NCBI GenBank assembly: GCA_963722255.1
Contig: CAVRJO010000002.1
Coordinates: forward strand, 640,001-704,000
Direction of reading: 5' to 3'
DNA length: 64,000 bases
Origin: Candidatus Babeliales bacterium
GTDB taxonomy: Bacteria > Babelota > Babeliae > Babelales > JANWKD01
Part shown: positions 3,101 to 63,695 of the stretch, piece after piece
Layout: each line of letters starts with the position of its first letter
Position numbering within the stretch: the stretch's first letter is position 1
Notes under the pieces: generated by a model
Database searches by the model: none
What the model saw: only the letters and a program-made list of their open reading frames with translations
What the model was told of the DNA's origin: nothing
Program-made: the position numbers and the translations under genes

Positions 3101-4456
3101 CTACTTAAAATGGATTTCACGCATGTGATAAAAAACTCCCGAAAGGGAATCTGATCGCCACGAAGGACAATAGGGACACTCATATACCCCTTGTTCCACT
3201 GCATGACATGTTTTAATATGATAAATGGTAGAATCTTTTCCACTATTATGTTTTTTCTTACATGAACAGGTAATGCGATCACCCCTCATTGTCCTACGCC
3301 CTAACGCTTCGCCATTTTTATTACAATCATCAGTTATATGCTTGGATAAATCTTCCTGAGTAGTAAATAGTTTTAAACAACTACAACTATATAAGAGCTG
3401 ATGGTCATCACTCAAATGATGAATCAAATCAACTGTGCGTGAATAAGATTGTTCGCATAAATCACATCTATAGTTAGAACTACTACAATGTTTTTTCCTA
3501 ATATGGTTAAATAAAGTATTATATTTTTTACAGTTACGACAACAATTATGCATTAGTAAAAGATTGCAATTTGCTTTATGCTCATTAAAATACAGTTCAC
3601 TCGTAAATATCTTATTACAGCAAACATAAAATAAAAAATGATCTACACTTAGATGTTTGATCAGCTCATCTGGTAACTCAAATGAAGCCTTGCAAGAAAT
3701 ACAACTGTATTTTTCATTTTCATTGTGCATTTCTTTAATATGACTGAGTAATCTGTTATAGGATTTAATAATAGCACAACAGAAAGATTTCTTAGTACGT
3801 TTACTTTCTACTCGCATTGCTTGCTTTTGAATTCCTGACGCTATATCTATAAAATCAAATTTTCGTTTATTGCCAATTTCTTTATTACAATCATCTGAAG
3901 GTAAATGAGTATAATCATGAGATTTATGAGATGAAATTTTCTTCATGAGCTGATCAAATTTTTCATTGTATGATGCATGTGGATATATAATAAGTTGTGA
4001 TTTAACACGAATCATCAAATCCAAAACATCTGTTTCTTTTTGTGCATCAGTTAAATGAAAAGCATAATTGCAGGCACATTCATACCACATTTCGACTAAT
4101 TTTTCTTTGGACTCTTTCATATCCTCTTGAAGCAAAAGACCGTTAATAATCGTTAAAAGAGGCATTACATAAAATACTTTTAAGGAATCATTAACTTTTT
4201 GTTCACCATTTTCTAAAAATGTCTTTAAAGTTGAACAGCATTCTTCTAGAAATGGTATAGTTGCCTCTTTCTTTACACTATCTTCTATAGTATTAGAAGA
4301 AGCATACATACTAGAGAAACCAACCATAAGATTTAAAAATGATGAAGTTTCACCATGATTAATTCTTTCACTTACTGGAAAATCAAAAGAACTAGTTTCC
4401 ATACAAAACATCATAGTCACATCAAACAACATCAATAAAAACAGAATTTTTTTCAT
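3101..4456 (-). CDS. Secreted protein with tandem C2H2-type zinc fingers
   Basis: Signal peptide; CISC-x12-HLSVDH, CDLC-x12-HLSDDH, CPYC-x13-HMREIH plus degenerate fingers. Confidence 0.8.
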   Translation of the reverse strand: MKKILFLLMLFDVTMMFCMETSSFDFPVSERINHGETSSFLNLMVGFSSMYASSNTIEDSVKKEATIPFLEECCSTLKTFLENGEQKVNDSLKVFYVMPLLTIINGLLLQEDMKESKEKLVEMWYECACNYAFHLTDAQKETDVLDLMIRVKSQLIIYPHASYNEKFDQLMKKISSHKSHDYTHLPSDDCNKEIGNKRKFDFIDIASGIQKQAMRVESKRTKKSFCCAIIKSYNRLLSHIKEMHNENEKYSCISCKASFELPDELIKHLSVDHFLFYVCCNKIFTSELYFNEHKANCNLLLMHNCCRNCKKYNTLFNHIRKKHCSSSNYRCDLCEQSYSRTVDLIHHLSDDHQLLYSCSCLKLFTTQEDLSKHITDDCNKNGEALGRRTMRGDRITCSCKKKHNSGKDSTIYHIKTCHAVEQGVYECPYCPSWRSDSLSGVFYHMREIHFK

Positions 4457-4813
4457 AGAGCATTTACCTAGTAGCTTTGTTTATTTTTTTAAATTTTCTT
4501 TTCTTGGGCAATGGTTTTGAACAGGATTCTCGATGAATTTTAAAATCAGCCGATAACCACAAACGATTGCAACAATTATATATCCCATGCCTTTTCCAGT
4601 GATATATAACACGAGCTCGACGCTTATATTTTTTTGTGCAATTATCGATAAAACATCGATACCTTCCATCAACTTCATGATAGGCTGACACATGTCTAAA
4701 TATAGTACTGTATACTCCTCTTAATTTTCTTTTACAACCACAATTAAAATGAAACTTTGGGTTTTTTATTTTTACATCCGTTGCTTTCTTATCTTTTTTT
4801 ATCAATTTTATTA

Positions 4814-5723
4814 GACCTCTTCTGAAACTCATTTAACCAACTCAAAATTATAGATACCCGCAATAAGATTGAAACGGAGCCCAAATCTTTTTCGTCTATT
4901 GCGATATTTGTCAGCAACTATTTTAAAACGTTTTATCATACCAATTACATGCTCATTTAAAACACGCTGGCTTGATAATTCTCTATTTCGTTGTTTATCT
5001 GTTAATGTTAAAGGATTTTTTTTACTTTTTTTCTTTGGCATAGAAGTATTATTATGAATTTTTTTTAGACCTAAATAACCTGTATCTGTAAGAACTTCAG
5101 TAGATTTTGCGAAGTGAATTTTTGAAGTTTTGAAGAGTTTAAAATCATGTCGTTTACCATCTGAAAAATTTGTACAAACAATTTCTTTTGTTTTTTTGTT
5201 TACAACTACCTGAGTTTTTATAGTATGACGTTTTTTCTTACCGGAATAAAATTTCCGCTGTTTTTTTTAGGACGTTCAATAGGACTTTCAGTTGCATCTA
5301 TTAAAATAACTTCAAATTCATTATCGCTTTTCAGTAGCGCTTTTCTGCCAGGCAATCTAAATTCTTTGCTTTGAATAAGAGTATTTTCAACCCATCGTAT
5401 TGCTTCAAATGCATTGCTTTCAGCAATGCCATAACTTGTCGCAATATGAAGATACGTTCGATATTCCCGTATATATTCAAGAGTCATCAAAAGCATTTCT
5501 TCAATACTGAGCTTATTTGGACGTCCTCCCTTTGCCTTTTTTATTTTTTGCGCTTCTTTTAAAATAGAAACCAATACTTCAAATGTTTTTCGTTTTACTC
5601 CAGTTACTCTTCTAAAGTTTTTTTCTGATGAAATTTTTAATTTTTCATACTTCATAATCGCTTACCCTTTTTTTATAAATCGATTATGATTATGCCATAA
5701 AATTTATAGTTTCAGAAGAGGTC
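4814..5723 (-). mobile_element. IS5-family element (ISL2-like), TA target duplication
   Basis: tagacctcttctgaaact (4812-4829) / agtttcagaagaggtcta (5708-5725) perfect inverted repeat. Confidence 0.9.
4829..5655 (-). CDS. IS5-family transposase, two frames joined by -1 frameshift at the A8 run (5261-5268)
   Basis: FRRVTGV, IDATE, ERPKK; -1 frame continues KQRKFYSGKKKRHT...HD...TDTGY...RVLNEHVIG. Confidence 0.85.
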
Positions 5724-6250
5724 TATTTTTTTTTGGGGTTTATTTTTTAATTTTTTTTCTTTTGATCTGATTTTTTTCCGTTTATGAGACACTTTTTGTT
5801 CTTTATTTTTTACCGCACAGAATGAAAGAACTCTCTCAAATGATTCTTCAAGCACACTAGCATTATAATCACCCGGATTTTTTAGAAGTTGACTATAAAG
5901 ATAAAGAGTTTTATTACATGCGCATGCTATGTCTAGTAGTTCTGTTCTTTTAGAGTTTATTGCGTCATGTATTTCTGCCTCGCAATCCGTAATAATGTAC
6001 ATAATCAAATCGTCCAAACTAGTATAAGGTCGATTCAGCAACATCATACCTTTACTGACAATTATCGATTCAAACAAATCATTTTGATCTTCTTGCATAC
6101 CCATTGCGTTATTAAGGCATACTAATAATAAAAATAGAACAGAATACAATTTCATATCTAATGCCAATCAATGATATTTGACCCAACAGTTACTATCTTT
6201 TACACTAAAGATAAAGAATACACTAACCGTAATTCGAAATTAAGATCATT

Positions 6251-10625: not shown

Positions 10626-11236
10626 TTAATCTTTTTTACGCCCATCATATTCAGGCTTTACAACTCTTCCTGTTTCTTTTTGAACTAACTGATAATCATT
10701 GTGTCCTTGCCACAGAAGAACATACTCTTTCTTTCTTGGTAAGTAAGCAAAATTAAACCATAAATAAAAGCCATCTTCTTTTACTTTATCAATTGCAATT
10801 GTATCGCCACGACTACCAACTTTAAGAAATGGTGAATCTTCACGTCTAAGCCATAGCGTTTTTGCACAAATTTCCTCTCCTATACAATAAACGTTTTCAT
10901 AATCTAACGAAGTACATCGATTATTCGATCAGAAAAAGAGTTCTTGTAATTATCATTCTTTTTTTCCAAAGGAACTTTTATTGATTTATTTGTTTTGCAC
11001 TTTTGCCATGCATAATATAATCCAGCACCTAAGCTTGTACCTAATGCTAACGCCGTACAAAGATTACTTTTAAGGCTATAATTTTCGGCATAAATCTGAT
11101 GTGCTAAATGCGCAAAGCCAGCAACTCCTGCCACGAAGCTTAATGCACCTACTTCCAAAGAATCTTTCATAGACATTGCATGAATATAAGGAGACGCTAA
11201 AAGCATCGTCAAAAATATGATTTTTATTTTTTTCAC
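10626..11236 (-). pseudogene. Membrane/secreted protein, paralog of 12122-12652, apparently frameshifted near 10905-10930
   Basis: N-terminus nearly identical to 12122-12652; another frame continues RCTSLDYENV...QKETGRVVK...KKD to a stop at 10626. Confidence 0.6.
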
Positions 11237-12121: not shown

Positions 12122-12652
12122 CTAAAATATCTTTTTTTCATTTAACCAAAAATACGTACCTTTTTTAAGGTCTGTAATATCATAGTTAACTTGATGTGTA
12201 GCATACTTTACATATAAAAATGTGCTCTCATCCTTCATACTGAGATTAAAATATGAACTATCTTTTGCATAAGCAAGTATTTTATATCCTGCATGAGATC
12301 GACTACAACCATGCTTTATCGATGCAGTATCCCTTGTTTCATTACACAAATCATCGATTATAAATTTTTTTTGCTTAACGACTGGTTTATTAGGTTTGAC
12401 AGCATTGCAAGATAAATTTCGCCAAGCAAGATACAGCCCAGTTGTTAAGCTTGTACCTAGCAGCAAAGAAGTAACTACATTATTTTTCAAACTATAATCG
12501 TGAGCATTTATTTGGTGAACCAACTGTACAACTCCAGCGACTCCTGTCACTAAGCTTAATGCGCCTACTGCCAATGAGTCTTTCATAGACATTGCATGAA
12601 TAGAAGGAGATGCTACAAGCATCGTCAAAAATATGATTTTTATTTTTTTCAT
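12122..12652 (-). CDS. Membrane/secreted hypothetical protein (paralog of 10626-11236)
   Basis: MKKIKIIFLTMLVASPSIHAMSMKDSL shared; two further hydrophobic helices. Confidence 0.7.
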   Translation of the reverse strand: MKKIKIIFLTMLVASPSIHAMSMKDSLAVGALSLVTGVAGVVQLVHQINAHDYSLKNNVVTSLLLGTSLTTGLYLAWRNLSCNAVKPNKPVVKQKKFIIDDLCNETRDTASIKHGCSRSHAGYKILAYAKDSSYFNLSMKDESTFLYVKYATHQVNYDITDLKKGTYFWLNEKKIF

Positions 12653-13194: not shown

Positions 13195-13854
13195 ATGAAT
13201 CAAATAAAAATCTTTCCTTCACTCATCTCTTCAAACATCTTGAATCTTGAAAAAACAGTCATAGAATTAGGCCCATTTTGCGATGGCTTTCACATCGATA
13301 TCATGGATAACCATTTTGTACCAAATTTAACATGGGGGCCTCCTATAGTAAATCAGATTGCAGCGCGAACTGATAAACCACTTTCAGTGCATCTCATGGT
13401 AGAAAAACCGGAAACAATTATTAATCAACTTAGATTAAAAGAAAAAAGCAGTATCTCTATTCATATTGAGAATGAAAATATTGATAAGCTCATTAGACTA
13501 ATACAGGAAAAAAAGCAACGCGCAAGCATTGCAATAAAACCGGAAACTCCGCTCGAAAAACTTTATCCATTTTTAAAAACAATTGAGCAGGTATTGCTCA
13601 TGTCAGTCGAACCGGGATTTTCCGGGCAAAAATTTTTGCCAAATTCTATTCAGCGCTTAAAAGAACTTATTGCCTATAGAAAAACTAATGATCTTACTTT
13701 TGAAATAGCCATGGATGGCGGCATCAATGAACACAATATTCACCAACTTTTTCTAGAAGGTTGTACGTCATTTTGCATTGCTTCAGCGATTTTTTCATCA
13801 TCACATGCGATTAATGCCATAAAAGACCTGTATACTAAAGCTCTAGAAGGGTAG
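13195..13854 (+). CDS. rpe: Ribulose-phosphate 3-epimerase
   Basis: HIDIMDNHFVPN, VHLMV, MSVEPGFSGQKF, DGGIN. Confidence 0.95.
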   Translation: MNQIKIFPSLISSNILNLEKTVIELGPFCDGFHIDIMDNHFVPNLTWGPPIVNQIAARTDKPLSVHLMVEKPETIINQLRLKEKSSISIHIENENIDKLIRLIQEKKQRASIAIKPETPLEKLYPFLKTIEQVLLMSVEPGFSGQKFLPNSIQRLKELIAYRKTNDLTFEIAMDGGINEHNIHQLFLEGCTSFCIASAIFSSSHAINAIKDLYTKALEG

Positions 13855-15243
13855 TTTCTCAAGTTCTGCACCGTAGCTTTTTAATAATGTAATAATATCG
13901 GGTGCAGTTGCATATGCCAAAGGTGGATAACCATCAAGATCTCTTGTATTAACAAACAGTTGAACCGGCCTTGAATCTTTTCCAAATAATCCCACAATTG
14001 TATCAATCAAGGTGCTAATAATTTCTGAAAAAATTCTTTTGTCCAAACTAAAATTAACAGCGGCTAATAGTGGTGTAAAACCTTTGCTATACGTACGAAT
14101 ATTTAAAAGTATATACAAAAAATATTTACTTGGAGCATAATTTTTCATAGTTCTAATTATAAGATGAGAAATATCAAACTTTCTTTGCAAAAGTGAAATT
14201 ATCAATGCACCTCGCCCATCTTGAGCAACATTTCTCAAAATAGAATAAAAAGCCTCTTCATCATCTGCAAAAAAGGTTTCAACAATATGAAGCAAAAATG
14301 CAGTATATTCATAACTTAGTGCAACAGCATGCATCAAAGGATCCCATCCTGCCGGTGAACGCGTCATCATAACTTCCAAAAAGAGCCTTGGCGTTTTTTT
14401 ATATTTTTTTTGAGTTTCAAAAATAATTTTTTGTACAACATTGAATTTATCATCACGAATTGCCTCTATAAGCTCAAGTCCTGTTTTACGCGCTTCTACA
14501 ATTTCCGGTTTAATTTCATGTAAGGTAATACCCCCATACTGTTTGAGAAATTGACGATGACGCGCATTAAAATAAGTATTATCATAAGGAGTTCTACCCG
14601 CAAGACTTACTGCATTAATAAAAGATTCATACTCTTCAGAATTCTTGCCTAAAATTCTTTCAGCAACAATTACCACAGCTTCCAAATTGAGCATTGATCC
14701 TTGAAAAGCTAACCAATGCAATATAGTCCAACCATCTTCATAGGCAGTAGCATTTAAAAAATCAAGGAACAGCTTTTTTTCAGAGCCTAATAATCTAATA
14801 ACATGATAAAGCATTAAATCTATCTGTTCGCGGGTACCATTTTGTGCCAACAAATAAAAAGCGGTGTGGCCTTGGAGGCATTGTGCATTAAGAAAATTAA
14901 ATACATCAAGAATACCATCATCTTGTGTGTCATAATATTTTTCAACTTTTTCTAAAATAAAAATTACCTGATCAATATCTGTCAAAGCAGCGGCTCTCAA
15001 CAGACTTGTACATCCATAGCCATCCCTGACATCCAAAAATTCATAGAAGGCATTCTTATTGTTTTTAAATTTTTGTAAAGCACTATTCATAATTGATTTG
15101 AATTCTGATTGGTCTATTAAATTTTGAGCTTTTAAAAACTGTTTCCCCATTTCTAGAGCTTGAGGGAGTGAGCTTCCAGTCATGCCCTTGCATAAGAAAC
15201 TAGTTACTAAAAAAAATATCAAAACCAAATATAATTTTTTCAT
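13843..15243 (-). CDS. Secreted ankyrin-repeat protein
   Basis: Repeated G-x-T/D-P/A-L units (GCTSLLRAA, GWTILHWLA, GFTPLLAAV, GYPPLAYA); ends LLKSYGA. Confidence 0.8.
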   Translation of the reverse strand: MKKLYLVLIFFLVTSFLCKGMTGSSLPQALEMGKQFLKAQNLIDQSEFKSIMNSALQKFKNNKNAFYEFLDVRDGYGCTSLLRAAALTDIDQVIFILEKVEKYYDTQDDGILDVFNFLNAQCLQGHTAFYLLAQNGTREQIDLMLYHVIRLLGSEKKLFLDFLNATAYEDGWTILHWLAFQGSMLNLEAVVIVAERILGKNSEEYESFINAVSLAGRTPYDNTYFNARHRQFLKQYGGITLHEIKPEIVEARKTGLELIEAIRDDKFNVVQKIIFETQKKYKKTPRLFLEVMMTRSPAGWDPLMHAVALSYEYTAFLLHIVETFFADDEEAFYSILRNVAQDGRGALIISLLQRKFDISHLIIRTMKNYAPSKYFLYILLNIRTYSKGFTPLLAAVNFSLDKRIFSEIISTLIDTIVGLFGKDSRPVQLFVNTRDLDGYPPLAYATAPDIITLLKSYGAELEKLPF

Positions 15244-15403: not shown

Positions 15404-16954
15404 ATGTTAAGAAGAATATCAAAAAATATATTGTTTACTTTGATAACTACTTTTTTAATCAATCACATGAATTTGAGTTGTACCAGTTCTCTACCTATAA
15501 ATTCATCGTTCAATAAAGCTGCGCGTCCAGATGCGCCCGGGAACCAGGATGGATCGGTTGTTGGTTCAATAGTATGTGATAACCAAGAATTGCGTGAATT
15601 AGTCCAATCAGTTGGTCAATCTTTTGATACATGCTGCAATACGTTACAACAGGATTTTACACATACTTTTTCATTGCTACAAGAAATTATTCAAGATTTA
15701 GGTGCTAAGGTAACAACACCTTGCGTCATCGTTCCCGTATCTCAAGCTCTCATTGACGCAAACGGCGGCACCTTAGTTATAAATACTCCAGGAAACTATA
15801 TTTTTACAGAAAATATTTCAACAGCGGCCAATACTGCAATAATCATAAACTCAAATGCTGTTACTATCGATTTTTGCAATAGAACCTTATTTGGTATAGG
15901 TCCTAATGCTATTACCGGAATACAAATCAATCCAGGTTTTTCAAATATTTTGATAGAATATGGTGAAATCAATCAATTTTCAAGTTATGGAATCCATGTA
16001 TTAAATGGGGTCTTCAATCTTACTATGCGCTATGTTTCTGTTTATAATTGTGCACGGGCTGGTATCTTTTTAGATGGATTGGGTAGTGGCTCGACAACAA
16101 TTACCAACTCATTTATTCAAGATTGCAGAGCTTCTTTTTGTGCTACTGCCGGTGGAGGCAATGCATTAGGAGGCCTGAGCCTTCTTAATTGCAATAATGT
16201 TATTGTAAATGGAGGCATGTATAACCAAAATGGTTCAGTATTAGCAACTGAATCTACTGGCGTCTTAGTTAATCAAAGTATTAATTGCAGATTAACCGGT
16301 GTTTTTATGGATAATAACACGGGCATTGCCGTTCATGGAATGCATATTCTTTCAAGCACTGGCAATATCATAAGCTCTTGTATTGCAAATGATAACATTG
16401 GAACTGCCACTGTTATCGGTCTTTTTGCAAATGGAGGAATGAATAATAGCTTTATGAACTGTACATCATCACGAAATACTGCTCCCATTGCTTATGGATA
16501 TAGTTTAGGAGCTGGTGAAATTTCTTCGCTGTTATGTAGATGTATAGCTGAAAATACTATTGGAACTCTCCCTTCATCTCCACCAAATGGAATTTATGGT
16601 GCTGGAATTGCTATTGATGGTGCCAATGGAGCATCATTCAATGAAGTTATGAGCAATTTAGTTATTAAAAATAATCAATCTGGTATTTTTGACAGTGCTC
16701 TTACTTTTAATGCACTTCCTATAGTTATCGCTGGCGCGAGTACAACTCTTGTCAATGGTAACAAGGCCGTTGATAATGGATTAGCTGGACCTGCATTCAG
16801 CACTACAACACCATTTAGAAATTATACTATTGCCTATACAACAGGCACACCAGTTGAAACAGTTATGTTTCGCTATTCTACGGGCGCAGCTCCAGTTGTA
16901 TCTTCTGCAGGAGATACTATGATCGCTAATATTGATGCTCGAAATGGTGCTTAA
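15404..16954 (+). CDS. Secreted right-handed parallel beta-helix protein
   Basis: INTPGNYIFTENI cap; repeated G-I-x-L...N-x-I-x-x-C-x-A-x-x-N units. Confidence 0.75.
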   Translation: MLRRISKNILFTLITTFLINHMNLSCTSSLPINSSFNKAARPDAPGNQDGSVVGSIVCDNQELRELVQSVGQSFDTCCNTLQQDFTHTFSLLQEIIQDLGAKVTTPCVIVPVSQALIDANGGTLVINTPGNYIFTENISTAANTAIIINSNAVTIDFCNRTLFGIGPNAITGIQINPGFSNILIEYGEINQFSSYGIHVLNGVFNLTMRYVSVYNCARAGIFLDGLGSGSTTITNSFIQDCRASFCATAGGGNALGGLSLLNCNNVIVNGGMYNQNGSVLATESTGVLVNQSINCRLTGVFMDNNTGIAVHGMHILSSTGNIISSCIANDNIGTATVIGLFANGGMNNSFMNCTSSRNTAPIAYGYSLGAGEISSLLCRCIAENTIGTLPSSPPNGIYGAGIAIDGANGASFNEVMSNLVIKNNQSGIFDSALTFNALPIVIAGASTTLVNGNKAVDNGLAGPAFSTTTPFRNYTIAYTTGTPVETVMFRYSTGAAPVVSSAGDTMIANIDARNGA

Positions 16955-16969: not shown

Positions 16970-17650
16970 CTATTTATTTTTTTTTGTTACAATCACAGCA
17001 TACAAAGAACCAAAGGGAATATATTTCAAAATCGATTCCATGGTATAAGAGATATTTGGATACAAATATAAACCTTTACTAGTACAAGAATTGAATGTAA
17101 AAAGGCTCTTTACATAGTTCAAACTGAGCATAACGGCTTCTTTGTCATGTTCAGCATAAAATGTTTTTCTTGCTGACCAATTATAAGGATTTGTTTCAAA
17201 AATAACGAGCACTCCTCCTGGTTTTAGCACACGTACTAGTTCGCAAGCAAAATGATTTCGTTCATCTTCTTTAATATGATGAAAAACATTGACACTATAG
17301 AGTATATTAACTGAACAATCATCAAAAGGTAGCAGATCTCTTATTAAAGGCATAAACGATATTTCAGGATACTGTTCAATATTTTTTTTCAATTGATCAT
17401 AATCAGTATCAACCCCTATAATATGCGCCTCATGAAATGATTTTTGTATATAATTTGTCAAAAAAGCATCACCACATCCAAAATCAAGGAGCGTAATTTT
17501 TTCATTAACTAGATGAAAAAACCAACGACTCAACGTATCATTGAGATACGCATAAAGTTCAGCATGAGGATGATCATTCATACTATTCATAAGAGATGTT
17601 CCAAGTATCAAGATTATTAAGAGCAGTAATCGTATCACATTGTGTTTCAT
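16970..17650 (-). CDS. Class I SAM-dependent methyltransferase with signal-like N-terminus
   Basis: LLDFGCGD, LPFDD, VFHH, RVLKPGG. Confidence 0.85.
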   Translation of the reverse strand: MKHNVIRLLLLIILILGTSLMNSMNDHPHAELYAYLNDTLSRWFFHLVNEKITLLDFGCGDAFLTNYIQKSFHEAHIIGVDTDYDQLKKNIEQYPEISFMPLIRDLLPFDDCSVNILYSVNVFHHIKEDERNHFACELVRVLKPGGVLVIFETNPYNWSARKTFYAEHDKEAVMLSLNYVKSLFTFNSCTSKGLYLYPNISYTMESILKYIPFGSLYAVIVTKKNK

Positions 17651-26173: not shown

Positions 26174-26226
26174 ACTATGTTTATATTTGTATTATAGGCT
26201 AAACTAATAACTTTGAAATCAAAATA

Positions 26227-27726
26227 ATGAAAAATACAATAATAATCCTACTTGCAGTTTCACTTAACATTTCAACATATGCAATGGAAAGACAATCAAA
26301 TCCTCCCAAAAGAAACAAGGATGAAACAAAACCTCCTTCATTCGCGCATCTAAGCCCCAAAAGCCTTGTTGATACCTGCCTAAAAACTTATTCTGATGCA
26401 ATTAAACAATGCATTGATCCCAAAGCACCTTTTGAAAATATAGAGGTGATTAAACAAGCGATTGCAGTAATTCAAATTCTTAATAATGATAGCCTCACAG
26501 AGAAGTTATTAAATCATCTTCATGAAAATACTCAACCCATTTGGAGAAAATACATAAGATTACACAGTAATATACTATCATTTGTCGTCGCCGATGATCC
26601 TGTAACATTACCATTTTTAGAACAAACTACCGTAAGTTGGCTAGAATGCGAACAAAATGATTTTTTTCATTATTCAAATATATCAAAACCTAAATTAACC
26701 CATTCTTATGAATTACCTGAGGGTTACGATGACAACAGGGGCTTAATCATTACTCCTGATCAACGATATACTGCGATTGCTCACCTTAATGAACTTTTTT
26801 TATTTGATATGATCAATGAAAATCAAACTATTTACTATGCACCTAAACCAATAGAATCATTGGCATTTTCGCCTGATGGTACCGGTTTTCTTGGCCTTCG
26901 CGATGGATCATGCTCTTTTGTAAAAAAAGATACTAATGACATGTATGTAATTGAAAATCTAAATCATTTTTTTTCAGAACCAATTCGTGCACTAGAACTC
27001 AGTTCAGATGGTTCTGTTCTTGTGCTATCAGATGGAAAATCCATAGCAATTTGTTATCAAAAAGACAGTTATGCAGTCAAACACACTCTTACATTTCCTC
27101 ACTTATTAGAATATACGCAAGGAGCTCAAGGCTGCTCAATAAAGGGCCTTAAGTTATCGCCAGATTCTTCCCTATTAGCCATTAACCTTAAGCAAACAAA
27201 TAGATCGCTCATTTATGATTTCGTTCATAACAGTTCAATAATTTTATCACAACCGGTCATCAAAATTGATCATGCCAATAGATGCATATGCACACGATTT
27301 GCTATTTATCAAGGAGATAACGAAGATGACGAAGATGATAAGTATCAATCATGCCTTTTAGATTATGTTGTACCCAATTGTTCTGACAAAAGTTATTTAA
27401 GTTCATCTTATGTTTTGCCAAAAGATAGTATGTGCTTAGTTTCGTATCAAAAGAGTGCAACAGTAAATCCATTATCAATTGTAATACAAAAAAGAGGTAA
27501 TGCAGAACCTTATCTTCTCTTACAAAAAAGAGTAAATCTTAAAAAACTCTTATATCTTATTGCACTTAACAAAGCGTCCAAAGAAGAACTACAAGCACTA
27601 AAAGAAATGCAAACAGCAAACCAAAGTCCTTTTTTAAAATTATTTAAAAAGCCTCAATGTGATAATGTCGTAAAGCAATATATTAATCATCGATTGAAAC
27701 AATTTGAGCAAAAAGGTTCAGAGTAA
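26227..27726 (+). CDS. Secreted WD40/beta-propeller protein
   Basis: Signal peptide; IESLAFSPDG, ALELSSDG, LKLSPDS repeats. Confidence 0.8.
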   Translation: MKNTIIILLAVSLNISTYAMERQSNPPKRNKDETKPPSFAHLSPKSLVDTCLKTYSDAIKQCIDPKAPFENIEVIKQAIAVIQILNNDSLTEKLLNHLHENTQPIWRKYIRLHSNILSFVVADDPVTLPFLEQTTVSWLECEQNDFFHYSNISKPKLTHSYELPEGYDDNRGLIITPDQRYTAIAHLNELFLFDMINENQTIYYAPKPIESLAFSPDGTGFLGLRDGSCSFVKKDTNDMYVIENLNHFFSEPIRALELSSDGSVLVLSDGKSIAICYQKDSYAVKHTLTFPHLLEYTQGAQGCSIKGLKLSPDSSLLAINLKQTNRSLIYDFVHNSSIILSQPVIKIDHANRCICTRFAIYQGDNEDDEDDKYQSCLLDYVVPNCSDKSYLSSSYVLPKDSMCLVSYQKSATVNPLSIVIQKRGNAEPYLLLQKRVNLKKLLYLIALNKASKEELQALKEMQTANQSPFLKLFKKPQCDNVVKQYINHRLKQFEQKGSE

Positions 27727-27902: not shown

Positions 27903-29354
27903 ACTATGTTTATATTTGTATTATCAACTAATCTAAAAATTTTAAAATCAAAACAATGAAAAAAACAATAATAATTCTACTTGCAGTTTTGCTTAACATT
28001 TCAACATATGCAATGGAACAATCAGATCATCCCAAAAAAAGCAAGGTTGAGAAAGACCCTGCAATGCCAATACAAAATCCCAAAAGCCTTGTTGATATCT
28101 GCCTAAGAACCTATTCAGGAGCAATCAAGCAAAGCATTGATCCCAAAACACCATTCAAAAATGCAGATGCAATTAAACAAAAAATTATTGCTGTAAAAAA
28201 TCTTAACAACGATGCTCTCATGCAAAAACTTTCAACTTATCTTCACGAGAATACGCAACCAATCTGGCGAAGCATTATGCAATTAGGAACTGATGGTGAT
28301 GAAGATATGGGTTCCTTATCAGAACAAATGGTATTTAGCAATAATACTATTGCATGGGGCTATAATGGCTCTATTACCTATCTAAACATAAAAAATTCAA
28401 GATTAACACATTCTTATAAACTTCCTGATGAATTCGAAGCTTGCCAATGTATAGGCTTGACTCCTAATGAACGATATATTACTACAACAAATAAGTGTAA
28501 TCTTTTTTTATATGACACGCAAACCGGCTCTCATAGTGTCTATAGTGCCCCAAACTTCATAACTGCTTTCACATTTTCATCTGATGGGATCGCATTTCTT
28601 GGTCTTTATGATGGCTCATGCTGTTGTGTAAAAAAAGACAAAGCCAATAAACTTACGTTAGTAGATCAAATTTCCTATTTTTCTCAACCAATTCGCATTG
28701 TTAAATTTGGTCCAGACGGCTCAACATTATTTATATCCGATGGCAAAACTATAGCCTTAAGTCACAAAACTGACAATTATAAAATTATAACTCCTCTAAA
28801 AATACCAAAATTAAAAGGCCATATTGAGGGTAGTTCAATTAAAAATATTGTTATTGCCCCAGATTCATCATTTTTAGTTATTAATTTTTATAAATTCTCC
28901 TCATCACTTGTATATAATTTTACTCATAAGCGTTCTATGAAATTACCTGAGCGCATTATTACAATCGACCATATCAACAGATGCATTAGCGCGAATTTTA
29001 CTTACAAAGATGGCGATGAAAATGATGATGGTGGGCGAGCATGTCAATTAGATTATGATATGCCCACTAATTGGGTTAAAAGCGGAGACTATTCAAATTC
29101 AACGTATCTTTTACCAAAAGACTGTGTATGTTCAGTAGTATACCAAAATAATAGAACAGGAAGTCCAAAATCGGCAGTAATAAGACAAAAAGACGATGAA
29201 CCTGCCCATTTGCTGGTACAAAAAAATGTTAATCTTAAAGAACTTATATATCTTATTGCACTAGATGAAGCATCATATGAAGAGCTTCAAGCATTAAAAA
29301 AATTACAACAAACAAAAAAAGGCTCTCAAGAAAAACGACCTATTTTAAAGTTAT

Positions 29355-33857: not shown

Positions 33858-33875
33858 AAAATAAAGGAAATCACC

Positions 33876-34208: not shown

Positions 34209-34240
34209 AAAATCTTTTTGAAATTAAAAAGGAAACCGCC

Positions 34241-46117: not shown

Positions 46118-46183
46118 TACCCAATAAATGAATTTATTTAATTGTATGCCTTAAAAACTATTTTAAAAAAAAGGGAATATGTT

Positions 46184-46618
46184 ATGAAAACTTCAATAAA
46201 ACTCATTGTAATCATTATACTCATTGCTTCTTTTACAAATGCATATGGAGCCCGCTACTATATTACCAATAAAGGAGCTCAAACAGTAACGGTAAAGCTT
46301 GACGTTGTTGAAAGAGATGAAGATTTCGAAGTATATTATTTTACCTTAACAGCAGATAATTTAAGACATGGCCAAACGGTAGAAAGAGATGCCGGTGGCG
46401 GTAAATATGTTAACGTCGTATATCTTCTTCCGGCAGGTTCTGGAAAGTTGCCACTTTTGCCAGTAACAAATGGCATGAAAAACTCTGGAGATAAATTTGG
46501 TAAGCTTGCCCAATCACTAGACAAAGACCATAAAGATTACACTATTGATGTAATTTCAAAGCCTGACCCAAATAATCCAAAAAACTTATTATGGACTATT
46601 GATGCAAAACCAAAATAA
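46184..46618 (+). CDS. Small secreted beta-rich protein, family member 6
   Basis: YYITNKG.QTVTVKLD; DAGGG; VYLLP; PDPNNPKNLLWTI. Confidence 0.75.
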   Translation: MKTSIKLIVIIILIASFTNAYGARYYITNKGAQTVTVKLDVVERDEDFEVYYFTLTADNLRHGQTVERDAGGGKYVNVVYLLPAGSGKLPLLPVTNGMKNSGDKFGKLAQSLDKDHKDYTIDVISKPDPNNPKNLLWTIDAKPK

Positions 46619-52984: not shown

Positions 52985-53611
52985 TTAATAGCTATTATCT
53001 TTGCTTGCAACCAAAAGTCCTTTGTTCAGAACTAGATTTGTCGGGTCATCCCATGAAAAGGTAGAACAAATTTTTTCTATTTCAGGTGGTACGGTATATT
53101 CCAATTTTCTTCCACCGGCTCGTTGAACTTTACCAAATACTTTAAATTCATAATCAAAACTAACGCAAAGTTTATCGTCAGTCACTTTAATGGGTGTGGC
53201 CGTATCCTGCTTTACTTCTTGGCCATTGGCCATAAGAATAAATTTTGATGGCGTATAATTGCCAGTCCAATGCTTTTTATAGGTAATCATATCTTTTGTT
53301 ATCTCATTTGACAGTAGAACGGTTCTTTCAACAGGCTTTGATGGAACTTTATTTGGTAAAGAAATTGTTGATTTTTCAACCGTCGTATTTTTTTGAGAAG
53401 TTATGCTGTTTACTTCATTTGCTTGAATGGGTACAGGTTGAATCTCTTGCTTCATACTTTGCGCAACTGCATCTGTATCCTTAGATTCAGCAACTATTTT
53501 TTTAGAATCTAAGACGCGTTGACCATTTTCAGTCACAGAAATAAAATTCATCGGCGTGGTAATAATAATTGCACTACAGAAAAGCAAAAATATTTTTTTC
53601 ATTGTATTCAT
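52985..53611 (-). CDS. Secreted hypothetical protein
   Basis: Signal-like N-terminus, low-complexity linker, beta-rich C-terminus. Confidence 0.6.
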   Translation of the reverse strand: MNTMKKIFLLFCSAIIITTPMNFISVTENGQRVLDSKKIVAESKDTDAVAQSMKQEIQPVPIQANEVNSITSQKNTTVEKSTISLPNKVPSKPVERTVLLSNEITKDMITYKKHWTGNYTPSKFILMANGQEVKQDTATPIKVTDDKLCVSFDYEFKVFGKVQRAGGRKLEYTVPPEIEKICSTFSWDDPTNLVLNKGLLVASKDNSY

Positions 53612-53700: not shown

Positions 53701-55107
53701 ATGGTGTACAAAAGCCTATTATTAGCAACAATTGCATATTCATCATTAATGAGTATGGAAGAAAAAGAACCAGAAACTCTTTTTGATAAAGCAGTTTGCT
53801 TCATTGACACCATTATTCCACAAAGAAACCCCCATGATTTCAGCAAAAAAGTTAAACAATTTCTCAGAAACCAGAACGCAACAAAAGAACAAAAAAAAGA
53901 GCTAAAAAGCAAGTTAGCTTCATTTGCACAATCTACTTTTTATACCATTAAAACTCTTTCTGATATTAAAAATCTTGATTGTGTTGCTTCTGCACAAAAA
54001 TCAATAGTAGCCTGGGTCGATACTCTAGATACTGCCTTTAATGTTAATGTAACAACAAAGCCTCAAGAAACAGTACGCATGAACGGCCATAAACATGCTA
54101 TTTCTTGCCTGTCCATATCTCCCGACCAAAAATGTCTTATAACCGGCTCAAAGGGAGAAGATTCCTTAAAAATTTGGCAACTTGAACCACAAATTAAATC
54201 TCTTGTTACCTGTAACTATTTTAAATACGCTCAAAAAAAAATACCGAGCATGGAGTCAACGGATTCTCTTTCCTGCGTTCAATTTTCTCCGAATGAAGAC
54301 CATATTGTTTGTGCTGACTCAAGCGGAAGAGTTTGTGTAATAAAAGTGAGCAAAGAAAGCAACTATGAAATAAAACTACTTTCCTTTAAAAAATTTATTA
54401 AGAGCACTAATAATCCTTTTACAAAGATTAGTTTTATATCTGGCAATAGAATGATTATATCAAATGCACGCACAATAACTTTTTGGAAGACAACGACATG
54501 GAAAATTAACCAGACAGTAAATCTTGATGAGTCTCTTGAAATGATCGCTACCTTTCCTGATAAACTACGAATATGCGCTAAATATTTAGATGCAAAAAAT
54601 AAAAATAGTTCAATTCAAATTATAGAAACTAAAGGAACTAAACGAATTACAGAAGATACTATTCATAAAATTGTCTATGAATCTGCTCTTTTTGCAAAAG
54701 AAAATGTTAGTACAGGTTTTGATTCATCAGGTAATTTAATCCTCATAAAGAAAGGCACCCATCCAAAATTTTATCGTCTTGATACTGATGAACCAAACAA
54801 ATTTTTGTTACCGGATTGGACAAGTCTATACTATTTTACAAATCCTCAAACCATGCCGCAAAGCTTGCTTTCAGCCTCTTTGATCGACCAAAGGAAACCT
54901 TTTAGGATAACAACAATCTATGTACCTGAAATGCTTAGTTTTAAAAAATTGTATTTGCATATGGCAATAAGAAAAGCTATCGAAGAACATGATACTGATA
55001 CCTTACGTAAGCTAAGAAAAAGCAATCTAATAGAAACCTATGGGACGCCTGAACTTTTACGAGGATATATTGATAAGGCAATGCAAAATCTCAGCGCAGA
55101 GCTATAG
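53701..55107 (+). CDS. Secreted WD40-repeat protein
   Basis: GHKHAISCLSISPDQKCLITGS...LKIW; CVQFSPN. Confidence 0.8.
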   Translation: MVYKSLLLATIAYSSLMSMEEKEPETLFDKAVCFIDTIIPQRNPHDFSKKVKQFLRNQNATKEQKKELKSKLASFAQSTFYTIKTLSDIKNLDCVASAQKSIVAWVDTLDTAFNVNVTTKPQETVRMNGHKHAISCLSISPDQKCLITGSKGEDSLKIWQLEPQIKSLVTCNYFKYAQKKIPSMESTDSLSCVQFSPNEDHIVCADSSGRVCVIKVSKESNYEIKLLSFKKFIKSTNNPFTKISFISGNRMIISNARTITFWKTTTWKINQTVNLDESLEMIATFPDKLRICAKYLDAKNKNSSIQIIETKGTKRITEDTIHKIVYESALFAKENVSTGFDSSGNLILIKKGTHPKFYRLDTDEPNKFLLPDWTSLYYFTNPQTMPQSLLSASLIDQRKPFRITTIYVPEMLSFKKLYLHMAIRKAIEEHDTDTLRKLRKSNLIETYGTPELLRGYIDKAMQNLSAEL

Positions 55108-59017: not shown

Positions 59018-59653
59018 TTAGCTTGCTTTTGTAGCGACTGTTGCAAGTTTTTCAAGAGCTGGCTTAACTGCTCCTGCTGCCGTTTCAACTGCTGGTTTAA
59101 CTGTCGCTTTAGCTGCTTTTTGAACGACTTGAGCAATATTTTGAGATCCGAGCCATGAAGTCAACCCATCCATACACGCAATACCACCTAAAAAGTATCC
59201 CATTTTATTTGGCATACAATAATCTAAAAGAGCTATTGCACCCGCTGCAGCCAAACAGTATCCATTAAATTTTAAACCATTTTCGAGCAATTCATTGTTT
59301 CCTGTTACTTTGCAAATCTGAGTCATATAATGCTGGATTCTCCATGCTGATGTTAATGCTACCGTAACAGCTCTTGCAACGGTAAAACCTAACCTCAAAC
59401 CGCTCACACCAGTTTCTTCTTCTTCATCTTGTTCAGCTTTTTTCAAAGCTTCTGCTTTTTCTCTTTGCTCCATTTGCTGAGCCAATTGTGCTAATTGTTT
59501 TGATGTCATATTATGCAGATTTCCTGAATAATTAACCCCTTTAGGTACTTGGCTTTGTTGTTGTTGCCCTTGTTGCGGATTCATAGTTAATGCAGAACCA
59601 ACTGTCAAAATAAGCGAACATAAAATCATTAATCTTTTTAATATTGTAACCAT
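59018..59653 (-). CDS. Secreted/membrane hypothetical protein with Gln-rich and acidic tracts
   Basis: Signal peptide, PQQGQQQQSQ, DEEEE, hydrophobic helices, Ala/Lys tail. Confidence 0.6.
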   Translation of the reverse strand: MVTILKRLMILCSLILTVGSALTMNPQQGQQQQSQVPKGVNYSGNLHNMTSKQLAQLAQQMEQREKAEALKKAEQDEEEETGVSGLRLGFTVARAVTVALTSAWRIQHYMTQICKVTGNNELLENGLKFNGYCLAAAGAIALLDYCMPNKMGYFLGGIACMDGLTSWLGSQNIAQVVQKAAKATVKPAVETAAGAVKPALEKLATVATKAS

Positions 59654-59849: not shown

Positions 59850-60737
59850 TTAATTCATGGTCTCGACTGGATTAATGAGAGTAAAGGAATCCTTTGATTC
59901 CAGAAAGGCCTCAGCATAAAAAACCTTGCTGAGGTCAAAACAGTGCGGGAATAGGCTTTTTTCATCGCCATTGCCTTGGGTATATGAAAGGGTATCAGTT
60001 ATCTTTTTGCTGTAACGGGGTATTATTCCTAGGCCTTCCATATCCTTATAAAGGCCATAAAGGGTATTTAAAGCATATTGGGCATGCTCTTTGCCATTTG
60101 CTATATAAATCACCATAAGAGCCATGGCGCCTCCATCAACGCTTTTAGCCTCAAGAAGCTTTTTTATCTCTTCTAAAGGCCATGAAAAATCTATAAGAGG
60201 CTGAAGCTTAAAGCTTGTTATTGATTCTTGCAATTGAGTGTCAGTTTTTAAAGTTACTATGAGTTTTTTTACCATGAGCTTATATTCATCAGCATTTTTT
60301 GGCATTGCATGAATTTTATAACAGCTTGCACATAGTTTCTTGGCTTTCTCTAGTTTGTTTTTTGAAAGATCATTAGCACAGTTCCATACGCACGCGAGTG
60401 ATTCTTCTTTAAGGCGCTCTTGGCAATCTAGGATTTCTTGAAGACGATACTCTTTTCTAACTCCTTTAAAAAGAGACCCTCTTACTTCTACATAATTTGT
60501 AGACTCTAATGTTGCATGAACCATTTCTTGATCTAATTCAGCATTTATTAAAGCATCATTGACCCACTGGTACAAGTCTTCTTCAGTCACACCATGAGGA
60601 TTTAGATATAAAAATTCAATATCGAGTTTTTTTAAAAGTAGTTCTAATGCATGCTCTCGTGATTTTTCTTCCATCGCCAAAAGTGAAGTTGTATAAAAAA
60701 AATAAATGAAAAAGTACCAATAATAAGAGCCTCTCAT
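59850..60737 (-). CDS. Secreted hypothetical protein
   Basis: Hydrophobic N-terminus ending LLA-MEE. Confidence 0.6.
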   Translation of the reverse strand: MRGSYYWYFFIYFFYTTSLLAMEEKSREHALELLLKKLDIEFLYLNPHGVTEEDLYQWVNDALINAELDQEMVHATLESTNYVEVRGSLFKGVRKEYRLQEILDCQERLKEESLACVWNCANDLSKNKLEKAKKLCASCYKIHAMPKNADEYKLMVKKLIVTLKTDTQLQESITSFKLQPLIDFSWPLEEIKKLLEAKSVDGGAMALMVIYIANGKEHAQYALNTLYGLYKDMEGLGIIPRYSKKITDTLSYTQGNGDEKSLFPHCFDLSKVFYAEAFLESKDSFTLINPVETMN

Positions 60738-61906: not shown

Positions 61907-62773
61907 ATGAACTCAATAAAAAAATTATATGTTTGGCTCAGAAGGCCTCATAAATCACAACTCGCTCAATATATTGAAACGATCATTATTTTTGTTCCCT
62001 TAGTTTTTTTTATTCGCACCTATTTCTTCGGGTTGTATCAAGTTCCAACCGGCTCAATGGAAACTACAATGCTTGTTGGAGAACGGTTTTTTGCTGATAA
62101 ATTAACACTCCATTTCAAAGGTCTTCAGCATGGAGATATTATTGCAATCAATGATCCAACCTTTATCTATTCAAACAACTATCTTATAAATTTACTTCAA
62201 CGTTATGTATATGGCCCCACAAATTGGACAAAACGTATCATTGGTTTACCTGGAGATCATATTCAAGGCAAAATTGAAGATGGCAAACCGGTCGTGTATC
62301 GAAATGGCGATAAGCTTAATGAGCCCTACTTAAATAAGTTTCCTCTCATCATGCTCTATGAAGATGGAAAATTAACTCCTCGTTCATACGATGACCATTA
62401 TTCTTTTGAAAATCAACCATTTTATCGCATGAATGCAAAGGAAGTTATACTTGGGCAAAAAGTAGCCGCACAGTATGACGAAGAACCACTACTTTTACCC
62501 GACACTCCCACCTATTCAAATAATCGTAACGTCGATGAGTTTGATATTCATTTAGGTCCTACTCAAATTTGGGCAATGGGAGACAATCGCAAAGGAAGCG
62601 CAGATTCGCGCATGTTTGGACCATTTGATATAAAGCTTGTTCATGGCAAAATAATCTTTTGTTTATACTCACTCGATAGCCCTGATTCATGGTTTATCTT
62701 TGATCTTATAAAACATCCAATAGATTTTTGGAAACGAGTACGTTGGAATAGATGTTTGCAATCTATTAGTTAA
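61907..62773 (+). CDS. lepB: Signal peptidase I
   Basis: VPTGSMETT, KRIIGLPGD, MGDNRKGSADSR. Confidence 0.93.
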   Translation: MNSIKKLYVWLRRPHKSQLAQYIETIIIFVPLVFFIRTYFFGLYQVPTGSMETTMLVGERFFADKLTLHFKGLQHGDIIAINDPTFIYSNNYLINLLQRYVYGPTNWTKRIIGLPGDHIQGKIEDGKPVVYRNGDKLNEPYLNKFPLIMLYEDGKLTPRSYDDHYSFENQPFYRMNAKEVILGQKVAAQYDEEPLLLPDTPTYSNNRNVDEFDIHLGPTQIWAMGDNRKGSADSRMFGPFDIKLVHGKIIFCLYSLDSPDSWFIFDLIKHPIDFWKRVRWNRCLQSIS

Positions 62774-62816
62774 AAGAGTTACTGTTTCCAAATAGTTTTT
62801 TTAGATCGAATTCTCA

Positions 62817-63695
62817 CTAAGATACAAGACAACTGCTGCCGATTGCACTTTCGTTTTTTACGTCGGATTCACCTTTTCTGATATCAAAATAGTGCACGAC
62901 ACCATCAATCCCCGAATAAGCAATTGTAGTATCATCTGATGAACATGCAAGAGATCCGGCATAACTATTGATATGATTTTGTATAATTTTGCCAGAAGAG
63001 ATATCCCATAATTTGATCCCTTCACGAGCACACTGTGTACTTGAAATAAGAGTTTTAGTATCTGATGAAAAAGCCAGTGCGGCAATTTCACTCGTATCTA
63101 TAAATAGATTCGTTTCTTGTCCAGTACTAACATCAAAAATTTTTATAATTTGTCCTGTGCCACCCGTAGCACAAAAATTGGTACCGTTTGAAAGGGCAAG
63201 AGCTACTATTGTATCATCCTTAGAAGCTTCAAAAGTTTTTACACATTCACGTTTTTCTATATTCCATAATATAGGACTTTGAAATTCAATATCATCTGTA
63301 TGCAGACAAAAAACTCCATCATCTGAACAGGCATTTGCATAAGTTCCCTTAAAACAGTCCTTTAATTCTTGGGTAGATTCACCCGTTATAATATTCCAAA
63401 CTTTTATCGTCATTGAACAAGGAGAAGCGCCTATAGTTGCAATAAGATGGACATTGTCTTTAAAAAATTTTACAGAGCTGGCAACATCCTCATTTTTAAA
63501 TTCATGGGTATATTTTTTTTGCTCAATATCCCAAATTGCTACTTTAAAATCTTGCCCCATTGCAATTCGTTTTCCATCAGGAGAATAGTCTAGAGAGGCA
63601 ATAATCCCATCATTTTCCTGTTTGCTTGGCTCTTCATCCATGCTTTTACTAGCAAAAATTAATAAACAGATGCTTAATAAGAAATACTGTTTCAT
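62817..63695 (-). CDS. Secreted WD40-repeat protein ending in a CaaX-like motif (CLVS)
   Basis: SLDYSPDG, VAIWD, IKVWN, IKLWD; C-terminus SSCLVS. Confidence 0.85.
   Translation of the reverse strand: MKQYFLLSICLLIFASKSMDEEPSKQENDGIIASLDYSPDGKRIAMGQDFKVAIWDIEQKKYTHEFKNEDVASSVKFFKDNVHLIATIGASPCSMTIKVWNIITGESTQELKDCFKGTYANACSDDGVFCLHTDDIEFQSPILWNIEKRECVKTFEASKDDTIVALALSNGTNFCATGGTGQIIKIFDVSTGQETNLFIDTSEIAALAFSSDTKTLISSTQCAREGIKLWDISSGKIIQNHINSYAGSLACSSDDTTIAYSGIDGVVHYFDIRKGESDVKNESAIGSSCLVS

Follow-up and report, generated by a model that had tools for sequence, protein, structure and literature searches.

A methionine-headed tag behind Sec-type signal peptides in one clade of Babeliales: a possible sorting mark of host-directed proteins

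Introduction

Bacterial signal peptides of the Sec type that are removed by signal peptidase I follow the -3/-1 rule of von Heijne, and methionine (Met) is rare in textbook sets at position +1, the first residue after the cleavage site. Post-cleavage residues can also sort proteins, as described for lipoproteins by the Lol +2 rule and by the lipoprotein export signal of Bacteroidota. In the eukaryotic Plasmodium export element (PEXEL), the second mature residue is E, Q or D and the N-terminus is acetylated. Here we analyze a stretch of 64,000 nucleotides from a Candidatus Babeliales bacterium (the window, G000:C2:640001-704000, where G000 is the source genome of 1.62 Mb and 34% G+C, with the two contigs C1 and C2), in which fourteen predicted proteins have a Met directly after an apparent signal peptide, and we follow this Met and the mostly acidic or amide residue behind it (together, the tag) through the genome and its relatives.

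A report on PEXEL describes a motif that is cleaved beside a signal of the endoplasmic reticulum type, the new N-terminus being needed for export into the host cell (10.1101/2023.07.12.548774). The eukaryotic N-terminal acetyltransferase NatB acts, according to another report, on Met followed by an acidic or hydrophilic residue (PMC3104970). The Dependentiae, to which the Babeliales belong, are widespread obligate protist parasites whose genomes are full of signal-bearing ankyrin and eukaryote-like proteins. The main text on one isolate gives predicted signal peptides for 79 of 126 ankyrin proteins (PMC4378268), and that on another gives them for 78% of the ankyrin proteins and 44% of all coding sequences (PMC6561590).

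Results

A cleavage motif with methionine at +1

Open reading frames (ORFs) of the source genome were ranked by codon usage, which gave 1628 genes covering 86% of the sequence. A loose, Met-blind signal filter, which asks for K or R without D or E ahead of an uncharged nine-residue window with a mean hydropathy of at least 2.0, passes 658 of them (about 40% of genes, membrane anchors among them), and 656 of these 658 N-termini were usable for motif work. Cleavage sites are throughout those predicted from our own motif matrix or from the -3/-1 rule. When expectation-maximisation was run on the 27 residues past the hydrophobic core (656 sequences, ten seeds), nine of the ten seeds settled on a single site, found in either of two registers. 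Its motif, S-[LISAV]-[YFNQK]-[A.36 S.21 G.15 C.10]-[M.51]-[E.36 Q.12 N.10 D.07]-K/E-K/E, is the textbook -3/-1 pattern of signal peptidase I carrying Met at +1.

With best sites picked by positions -4 to -1 alone, +1 is Met in 183/656 (28%), and Met reaches only 0-4% at offsets -3 to -1 and +2 to +5 of those sites. At a score of at least 6 the full matrix yields 280 sites, of which 232 place Met at +1. The 232 genes that passed the signal filter with such a site are called tagged (SP+M) below; they make up 14% of the 1628 gene calls, or about one in seven, and their median signal length is 22 residues. A test that dispenses with the matrix (-1 in AGSCT, -3 in AGSCTVIL, no Pro) finds Met at 268/1892 positions that obey the rule (14.2%) versus 157/7978 others (2.0%; odds ratio 8.2, p 1.5e-92). 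Along the chain, Met frequency in signal-like proteins peaks at 6-8% at residues 19-24, as against about 2% in other proteins. The initial annotation had proposed that cleavage falls just before a Met and that Met is more frequent there than background; a cleavage-type site (L/I/S/A/V at -3, A/G/S/C at -1) does directly precede the Met, and the enrichment is about 7-fold. Among the tagged sites, which were selected with the motif matrix, -1 is A/G/S/C/T in 226/232 and -3 is L/I/S/A/T/V/C in 211/232. The observation of a Met after the signal is thus confirmed genome-wide, far beyond chance.

Tagged and untagged signals have the same median n-region charge (+2), core hydropathy (2.82) and signal length, and since their n- and h-regions are equal, both kinds enter by the same Sec route. 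The information in the motif fades at about +4, with no conserved position further on, and 63% of the first 30 residues after the Met are polar. Tagged genes are moderately clustered along the genome, with 61 adjacent pairs versus 33 +/- 5 expected.

The second residue of the tag

At the 183 Met sites, which were chosen blind to +2, the next residue is E in 89, Q in 19, N in 17 and D in 13, that is, 138/183 (75%), versus 60 of the 187 non-Met sites (32%), which bears out the preference for these four residues suspected in the initial annotation. Position 2 of 336 cytoplasmic starts supported by a Shine-Dalgarno (SD) sequence has a different spectrum (K.185, N.155, A.11, E.08; the tag has E at +2 in 49%). 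Relative to the mature region, +2 of the tag is depleted in G, A, S, T, C, P and V and in hydrophobics, the latter depletion being partly a by-product of how signal peptides are delimited. At -1 and +2 the choice among synonymous codons is that of the genome as a whole, so that the constraint sits on the protein and not on the DNA; a motif at the nucleotide level was rejected on the same ground.

This spectrum bears on a reading in which the tag acts after delivery: an effector beginning with Met-E/D/N/Q would keep its initiator Met and fall into the NatB acetylation class and not the Arg/N-degron class, so that it would resemble a native cytosolic protein and evade N-terminal quality control. 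Such a role is compatible with sorting inside the bacterium. Besides the fraction of E/Q/N/D at +2 itself, it is favored by the depletion at +2 of the residues that permit Met removal and of hydrophobics, by a relative (G020) whose preference for D stays within the same residue class, and by the tagged domains, which work in the eukaryotic cytosol or nucleus or need ATP, S-adenosylmethionine (SAM) or acetyl-CoA (AAA, a methyltransferase, three GNATs). Against it counts that NatB acts on chains still being made by the ribosome, its action on a protein brought in from outside being unproven. Moreover, Ala, Ser, Thr, Gly and Val, the usual +1 residues, are also stabilising, and avoidance of N-degrons therefore fails to explain the choice of Met; sister families are rich in signal proteins that lack the tag, though all eukaryotic hosts have these pathways. 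The argument from NatB and the N-end rule made in the initial annotation thus fits the +2 spectrum and leaves the preference for Met and the tag-free sister families unexplained, and we consider this role of the tag possible, if rather doubtful.

Which methionine is the start

In the source genome the SD sequence is of the AAGGAG type with a peak at -12 to -9, and a start was scored as supported if at least 4 nt of such a site were present. By this measure 62% of tagged genes have an SD sequence before the first Met and 5.2% before the second. For comparison, support is seen at 13% of internal in-frame ATGs (n = 6577) and at 42.5% of the starts of long non-signal genes (n = 327); the fourteen ORFs of the window have an SD sequence at the first Met in 9/14 and at the second in 0/14. 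The suspicion that the second Met is the true start is thus not borne out, the SD sequence backing the first. TTG or GTG starts occur in 29/232 tagged genes.

Initiation at the second Met, either in place of the first or besides it, so that exported and cytoplasmic isoforms arise, would account for the Met without any cleavage. Consistent with it, 38% of first Mets lack an SD sequence, some window genes lack one at both Mets, in a few clear cases the second Met is the true start, and enzymes that need cofactors would function in the bacterial cytoplasm. However, SD sequences before the second Met are scarcer than at random internal ATGs, the upstream frame is always open and codes for a canonical K/R-rich n-region and an h-region, such cases make up 0-4% in three sister genomes, and the +2 spectrum differs from that of real starts. 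We give this explanation very little credence.

A conserved DNA-ligase-like gene (G000:C1:218478-220421, minus strand) has a TTG start without SD sequence and a hydrophobic in-frame 5' extension, and its homologue in the relative G024 (G024_6) shares the extension, which ends at the Met where other homologues begin. Either the ORF was extended wrongly or the gene illustrates a possible origin of signals. In the three sister genomes, whose G+C content is similar, the same pipeline finds 0-4% of such patterns and so sets a bound on how often 5' extensions arise by chance.

Paralogy and turnover

A BLAST comparison of the mature parts splits the 232 tagged genes into 182 single-linkage families, including 144 singletons, in line with the earlier impression that the tagged proteins are mostly unrelated. 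A shared cassette of promoter and signal was rejected as well: blastn with 100 nt of upstream sequence and the signal region yields just matches of 19-80 nt between families, which cluster near the SD sequence and the ATGAAAAAA start and are as common with untagged genes as with tagged ones. With 182 families, 144 singletons and no common 5' cassette, paralogy fails to explain the tag. Between paralogues sharing less than 40% identity (192 directed pairs, mostly of one ankyrin family and hence not independent), the Met is the best-conserved N-terminal position, with an identity of 0.53 versus 0.35 at -1, 0.39 at +2 and 0.15-0.30 at positions outside the motif.

Turnover of the tagged genes is quick. 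In 400 kb of the same-genus genome G001 (C1:1000001-1400000), 6 tagged genes have reciprocal best hits versus 194 genes overall; the six have a median identity of 32% and retain the Met in 3/6, a comparison of low power. Despite this turnover the tag is equally frequent in that sample, and few tagged genes have homologues in 200-kb samples of relatives.

These data also concern the possibility that the Met is a functionless relic, namely the old start codon of a cytoplasmic or acquired gene that was extended 5' into AT-rich sequence. Extensions of this kind occur, as in the DNA-ligase-like gene and its G024 homologue, and the tagged genes are young, as the 6 versus 194 reciprocal best hits indicate. 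A relic start leaves it unexplained that Glu stands at +2 in 49% of tags versus 8% at position 2 of ordinary starts, that Met is the most informative position of the motif and is better preserved than its flanks among divergent paralogues, and that it keeps a fixed register to -1/-3. Related families with an equal load of signals show no Met, and no common cassette was found. A relic is improbable on this evidence.

Protein classes with and without the tag

The Pfam scan covered contig C2 with its 98 tagged and 70 well-scored untagged signal proteins, 105 weak ones of C2 and contig C1 being set aside; families were sorted into eukaryote-like versus envelope or hydrolase classes by our own judgement. 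At E<=1e-3 the tagged proteins comprise 12 ankyrin, 6 WD40/beta-propeller, 2 leucine-rich repeat (LRR), 2 F-box-like and 2 zf-C2H2 proteins, one AAA protein, one Peptidase_M48 and three weak matches, and 69/98 match no family. The untagged ones comprise, at E<=1e-5, two Omp85/POTRA proteins of the BamA type, PBP1, Peptidase S41 with PDZ (Prc), M23, S8, two GH1, Metallophos, Exo_endo_phos, PAP2 and Beta_helix, with 46/70 matching no family; they hold only three eukaryote-like domains (WD40, Ank_2, zf-MYND), and several of them are plainly not signal proteins at all (amine oxidase, CMAS, FMN reductase, Ku, TLC). Eukaryote-like domains at E<=1e-5 are found in 18/98 tagged versus 3/70 untagged proteins (Fisher p 0.008), and envelope or hydrolase families at the same threshold in 1/98 versus 12/70 (p 1.3e-4).

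Genome-wide, 21 of the 35 Ank_2 genes are tagged by strict criteria and three more by eye. The corresponding counts are 2/2 for F-box-like genes, 3/4 plus one by eye for zf-C2H2 and 3/9 plus two by eye for WD40, and the link of the tag to eukaryote-like domains, first noticed within the window, therefore holds (18/98 versus 3/70; 21/35 for Ank_2).

Nine GNAT matches are present in the source genome (for example at C1:275618-275788, C1:753145-754006 and C1:588756-588941); the N-terminus is signal-like in most of them, and three are themselves tagged. The signal-bearing GNATs are probably exported enzymes. Since the periplasm is not known to contain acetyl-CoA, they are likelier effectors than N-terminal modifiers of the PEXEL kind.

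Distribution among relatives

The 61 sampled genomes of the source phylum all belong to one order and are small. The share of signal-like proteins with [AGSC]M[EQND] was measured in the source genome and in relatives sampled at 88-400 kb:

G000, source genome: 180/658
G001, same genus: 45/154
G003, same family: 34/102
G020: 29/98
G014: 14/64
G024: 12/76
G058: 4/26
G051: 4/103
G052: 2/67
G016: 0/77

Among the signal-like proteins in sampled loci of other phyla, 0/41 carry the tag. The rule-based odds ratio is 7.5-9.1 in the tag-positive sampled relatives and 0.4-1.7 in G051, G052 and G016, the three sister genomes, where S and A are the commonest residues at +1. Identity of tyrosyl-tRNA synthetase to that of the source genome is 67-80% for the tag-positive genomes and 60-61% for the families of the tag-negative ones (G024 lies outside this comparison). 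In G020, D is favored over E at +2. The tag is thus clade-specific: several families of Babeliales have it and three lack it. Its restriction to a lineage fits a lineage-restricted bacterial machinery.

Proteins of the window

The fourteen ORFs listed in the initial annotation as having a Met after an apparent signal peptide all present the pattern: a K/R-rich start of the MKK type, a hydrophobic stretch of 18-23 residues, a small residue and an ATG-encoded Met. The -1 residue is A/G/S/C/T in all but one, which has P. Among the coordinates given there, 3101 is wrong, being the stop end of a minus-strand ORF (3101..4456) that starts at 4456; 6155 and 59653 are ATGs within longer ORFs that start with TTG. 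The members are as follows, with a slash at the predicted cleavage site and the motif score after SP+M.

3101..4456, minus strand: zinc-finger-like protein, 451 aa; signal of 18 aa, FC/MET; Met codon 4400-4402
5712..6155, minus strand: orphan, 147 aa from the ATG at 6155; signal of 19 aa, MG/MQE; Met codon 6096-6098; SP+M 9.0
10904..11236, minus strand: small protein with hydrophobic segments, 110 aa, GTG start; signal of 20 aa, HA/MSM; Met codon 11174-11176; SP+M 7.7
12122..12652, minus strand: paralogue of the preceding protein, 176 aa; signal of 20 aa, HA/MSM; Met codon 12590-12592; SP+M 9.1
13843..15243, minus strand: ankyrin-repeat protein, 466 aa; signal of 20 aa, KG/MTG; Met codon 15181-15183; SP+M 6.2
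16970..17650, minus strand: protein with a SAM-methyltransferase domain, 226 aa; signal of 23 aa, NS/MND; Met codon 17579-17581; weak score, 5.6
26227..27726, plus strand: beta-propeller-like protein, 499 aa; signal of 19 aa, YA/MER; Met codon 26284-26286; SP+M 15.5
27956..29356, plus strand: paralogue of the preceding protein, 466 aa; signal of 19 aa, YA/MEQ; Met codon 28013-28015; SP+M 14.0
36608..37363, minus strand: ankyrin-repeat protein, 251 aa; signal of 21 aa, CA/MHS; Met codon 37298-37300; SP+M 8.2; Ank_2 E 3.9e-10
52985..53611, minus strand: orphan, 208 aa; signal of 20 aa, TP/MNF; Met codon 53549-53551; weak score, 0.9
53701..55107, plus strand: WD40 protein, 468 aa; signal of 18 aa, MS/MEE; Met codon 53755-53757; WD40 E 7.7e-10
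59018..59653, minus strand: Gln-rich orphan, 211 aa from the ATG at 59653; signal of 23 aa, LT/MNP; Met codon 59582-59584; SP+M 7.6; SD GGAG
59850..60737, minus strand: orphan, 295 aa; signal of 21 aa, LA/MEE; Met codon 60672-60674; SD AAAGGA
62817..63695, minus strand: WD40 protein, 292 aa; signal of 18 aa, KS/MDE; Met codon 63639-63641; SP+M 8.8; SD AAGGA
15404..16954, plus strand: possible extra member, beta-helix-like protein, 516 aa; INH/MNL; Met codon 15467-15469; weak score, 5.4

The strict Met-blind filter and the motif score together class 9/14 as SP+M. Two more (16970-17650 and 52985-53611) score weakly, yet their predicted site precedes the Met. The remaining three did not pass on hydrophobicity or charge and were admitted solely by eye: 3101-4456, which has a D inside the hydrophobic window; 53701-55107, which lies below the hydrophobicity cut-off; and 59850-60737, whose aromatic-rich h-region is likewise under it.

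The zinc-finger-like protein at 3101..4456 has an SD-like AGGT at the first Met and none at the second, and a weak zf-Di19 match (E 4.7e-4). SD sequences also precede the first start of 10904..11236 (AAGG), 13843..15243 (AAAGG; Ank_2 E 7.8e-10), 53701..55107 (AAAGGAG) and 52985..53611 (AAAGGA), the last being the weakest case with its Pro at -1 and Phe at +3. The start of 16970..17650 (Methyltransf_11 E 2.1e-15) is less certain because no SD sequence is present at either Met. Pfam families were not found for 5712..6155, 10904..11236, 52985..53611 and 59850..60737. The propeller-like protein at 26227..27726 has a weak match to Beta-prop_EML_2, which its paralogue matches at E 1.7e-6, and 62817..63695 matches WD40 (E 6.1e-14) and many beta-propeller families. 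In the possible extra member, Beta_helix matches at E 1.4e-4 and an SD sequence (AAGGA) is present; the His at -1 is atypical. The filter also flags 41360-42112, a dubious case with its site 35 residues in.

As the initial annotation had noted, the barrels and the six small beta-proteins of the window go without the Met: the sites predicted for the barrels at 22878 and 25024, for the six small paralogues at 32981, 33417, 33876, 34241, 45731 and 46142, and likewise for the proteins at 831, 30159, 37507, 39631 and 44834 precede A/Q/D/G. The signals of the six small paralogues (32981-34678 and 45731-46618, both plus strand) end C/A, G/A or T/A and are followed by Y/F-rich, beta-like sequence; no Pfam family and no Met tag was found in them.

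Two side observations concern the history of this region. The 60 nt upstream of 26227 and of 27956 (26167-26226 and 27896-27955) are almost identical, so that the promoter region was copied along with the gene. Transposases stand amid the tagged genes at 11306-11785 (minus strand), 29430-29888 (minus strand) and 31830-32582 (plus strand), two of them IS200-like Y1 transposases (E 1.6e-38 and 2.1e-36) and one an IS4/IS5-type DDE transposase.

Processing and secretion machinery

The window also holds a gene for the presumed processing enzyme of the tagged signals:

61907..62773, plus strand: signal peptidase I (LepB), Peptidase_S26 E 1.1e-32 and 3.9e-33 in two scans, between two tagged genes

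A second LepB (G000:C2:137881-138756, minus strand) is a close duplicate of this copy, and both keep the stretches GSMETTM, KR.IGLPGD and GDNRKGS.DSR. Over the 61 genomes of the order there are 1-3 LepB matches each, and tandem pairs are common.

With two LepB genes, one of them amid tagged genes, the Met could reflect the taste of the enzyme, the signal peptidase of the clade or its second copy favoring Met at P1'. Envelope proteins of the same genome retain ordinary +1 residues, the two copies are close duplicates, and the number of copies (1-3) does not go with the tag in the sampled genomes, all of which makes such a preference highly unlikely as the explanation. A LepB paralogue dedicated to the tagged signals is likewise unsupported, the copies being near-identical and their number not tracking the tag.

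Two adjacent secretin genes lie at G000:C1:854358-859728 (minus strand), with frames of 801 and 945 aa. The pair occurs about 5 kb apart in 9/9 relatives searched, and G052 and G058 have three secretins where the source genome has two. GspE/PilB- and PilT-type ATPases are present in the source genome, and in the main text on one Dependentiae relative a type II system is the only secretion system detected (PMC4378268).

Discussion

A possible sorting mark read after Sec export

Our preferred reading, to which we assign a probability of roughly 0.4, is that these are genuine Sec signals, cut by signal peptidase I at the Met, and that a selected two-residue tag sorts host-directed proteins. Translation from the first Met would yield a Sec-type signal peptide, and signal peptidase I is predicted to cut right before the second Met, which would expose a mature N-terminus of Met-Glu or, less often, Met-Gln, Met-Asn or Met-Asp. 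The bearers, which would be the host-directed exported proteome of one Babeliales (Dependentiae) clade, are ankyrin, WD40/beta-propeller, F-box, LRR and C2H2 proteins, enzymes that depend on cofactors and a large number of orphans. Proteins resident in the envelope and hydrolases of the classical secreted kind lack the tag. After Sec export, a putative periplasmic or outer-membrane factor would read the free Met-acidic N-terminus and part the proteins bound for the outside from those staying periplasmic, an analogue in bacteria of sorting by the first post-cleavage residues. The anatomy and statistics of the motif, its specificity for a protein class and a clade and the constraint on its amino acids are observed, and we infer actual cleavage, export to the host and reading of the tag by the bacterium. 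Sorting is ranked first because a lineage-restricted tag suggests lineage-restricted machinery and because sorting by first residues has precedents.

Several findings weigh against this reading. The paralogue pairs in which the Met is conserved largely belong to one ankyrin family and hence are not independent, and a few tagged calls, that of the DNA-ligase-like gene among them, are artefacts whose true start is the second Met. LepB number is unlinked to the tag, G014 having one copy and the tag and G052 two copies and no tag, and the copy number of secretins gave no signal as a correlate, the pair being present in tag-negative genomes as well; as neither tracks the tag, no candidate for its reader came up. 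Known type II substrates, furthermore, probably rely on conformational and not on linear signals. The subtilase, GH1, nuclease/phosphatase-type and metallophosphatase hydrolases of this genome are untagged, and in other bacteria type II systems typically secrete hydrolases of this sort; should these be secreted too, a protein can cross the outer membrane without the tag.

A stronger form of the proposal makes the two-residue N-terminus an export code that is necessary and sufficient for routing into the host in the manner of PEXEL and that also lets the protein pass as a host protein of the NatB type. We regard this form as tentative and on the unlikely side.

Comparison with known signals

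By their features the tagged signals belong to the Sec/signal peptidase I class: charged n-region and uncharged hydrophobic core, small residues at -1/-3, a length of 18-28 residues and Peptidase_S26 genes are all present. They differ from classical Sec signals in having Met at +1 in about half of the sites and Glu at +2. The lipobox with Cys at +1 that defines signals for signal peptidase II is absent; Cys is the +1 residue of 3 untagged sites and the -1 residue of 26/232 tagged ones. Nor are they twin-arginine translocation (Tat) signals, as 3/232 tagged proteins and 4/176 untagged ones have RR among their first 12 residues. A type IV prepilin leader is short and charged and is cut after Gly, with a helix beyond the cleavage site and Glu at +5; here, in contrast, the hydrophobic stretch precedes the site and a polar region follows the Met.

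With lipoprotein sorting the tag would share the principle that the first mature residues decide between staying and moving outward. It differs in that lipoproteins carry a lipidated Cys after cleavage by signal peptidase II, whereas here soluble repeat proteins without a lipobox are concerned. The PEXEL element itself (RxLxE/Q/D, plasmepsin V) was not found, and the likeness lies in a possible way of working and not in membership: PEXEL is eukaryotic, whereas here the system is bacterial, the signal-peptidase site itself is presumably used and the first mature residue is Met. The NatB class shares Met followed by D/E/N/Q, found in 138/183 sites. Such N-termini are made by translation initiation in eukaryotes and would here be made by periplasmic proteolysis.

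Implications

The main texts of the two Dependentiae reports do not mention a Met after the signal (PMC4378268, PMC6561590; the word 'methionine' occurs in neither, and 'cleavage' is absent from the former). A description of the tag was not found in the literature searched, of which supplements and subscription journals formed no part, and the tag is apparently a new, undescribed feature of one Babeliales clade.

The tag may be a simple way to list the host-directed proteins of a bacterium of the amoeba-symbiont type, as it provides an inexpensive rule for picking out candidate effectors from sequence, among them the roughly 70% that lack a known domain. The Met and Glu positions offer a concrete experimental handle, and tag-positive versus tag-negative families a phyletic contrast for tracing the reading machinery. 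If the N-terminus mimics that of host proteins, it would be a new bacterial way of handling eukaryotic N-terminal quality control. If it is an export code, the whole effector repertoire, about 14% of genes and mostly orphans, would be readable from sequence, and the code would point to a new reader or translocation step in a phylum without reported type III, IV or VI systems.

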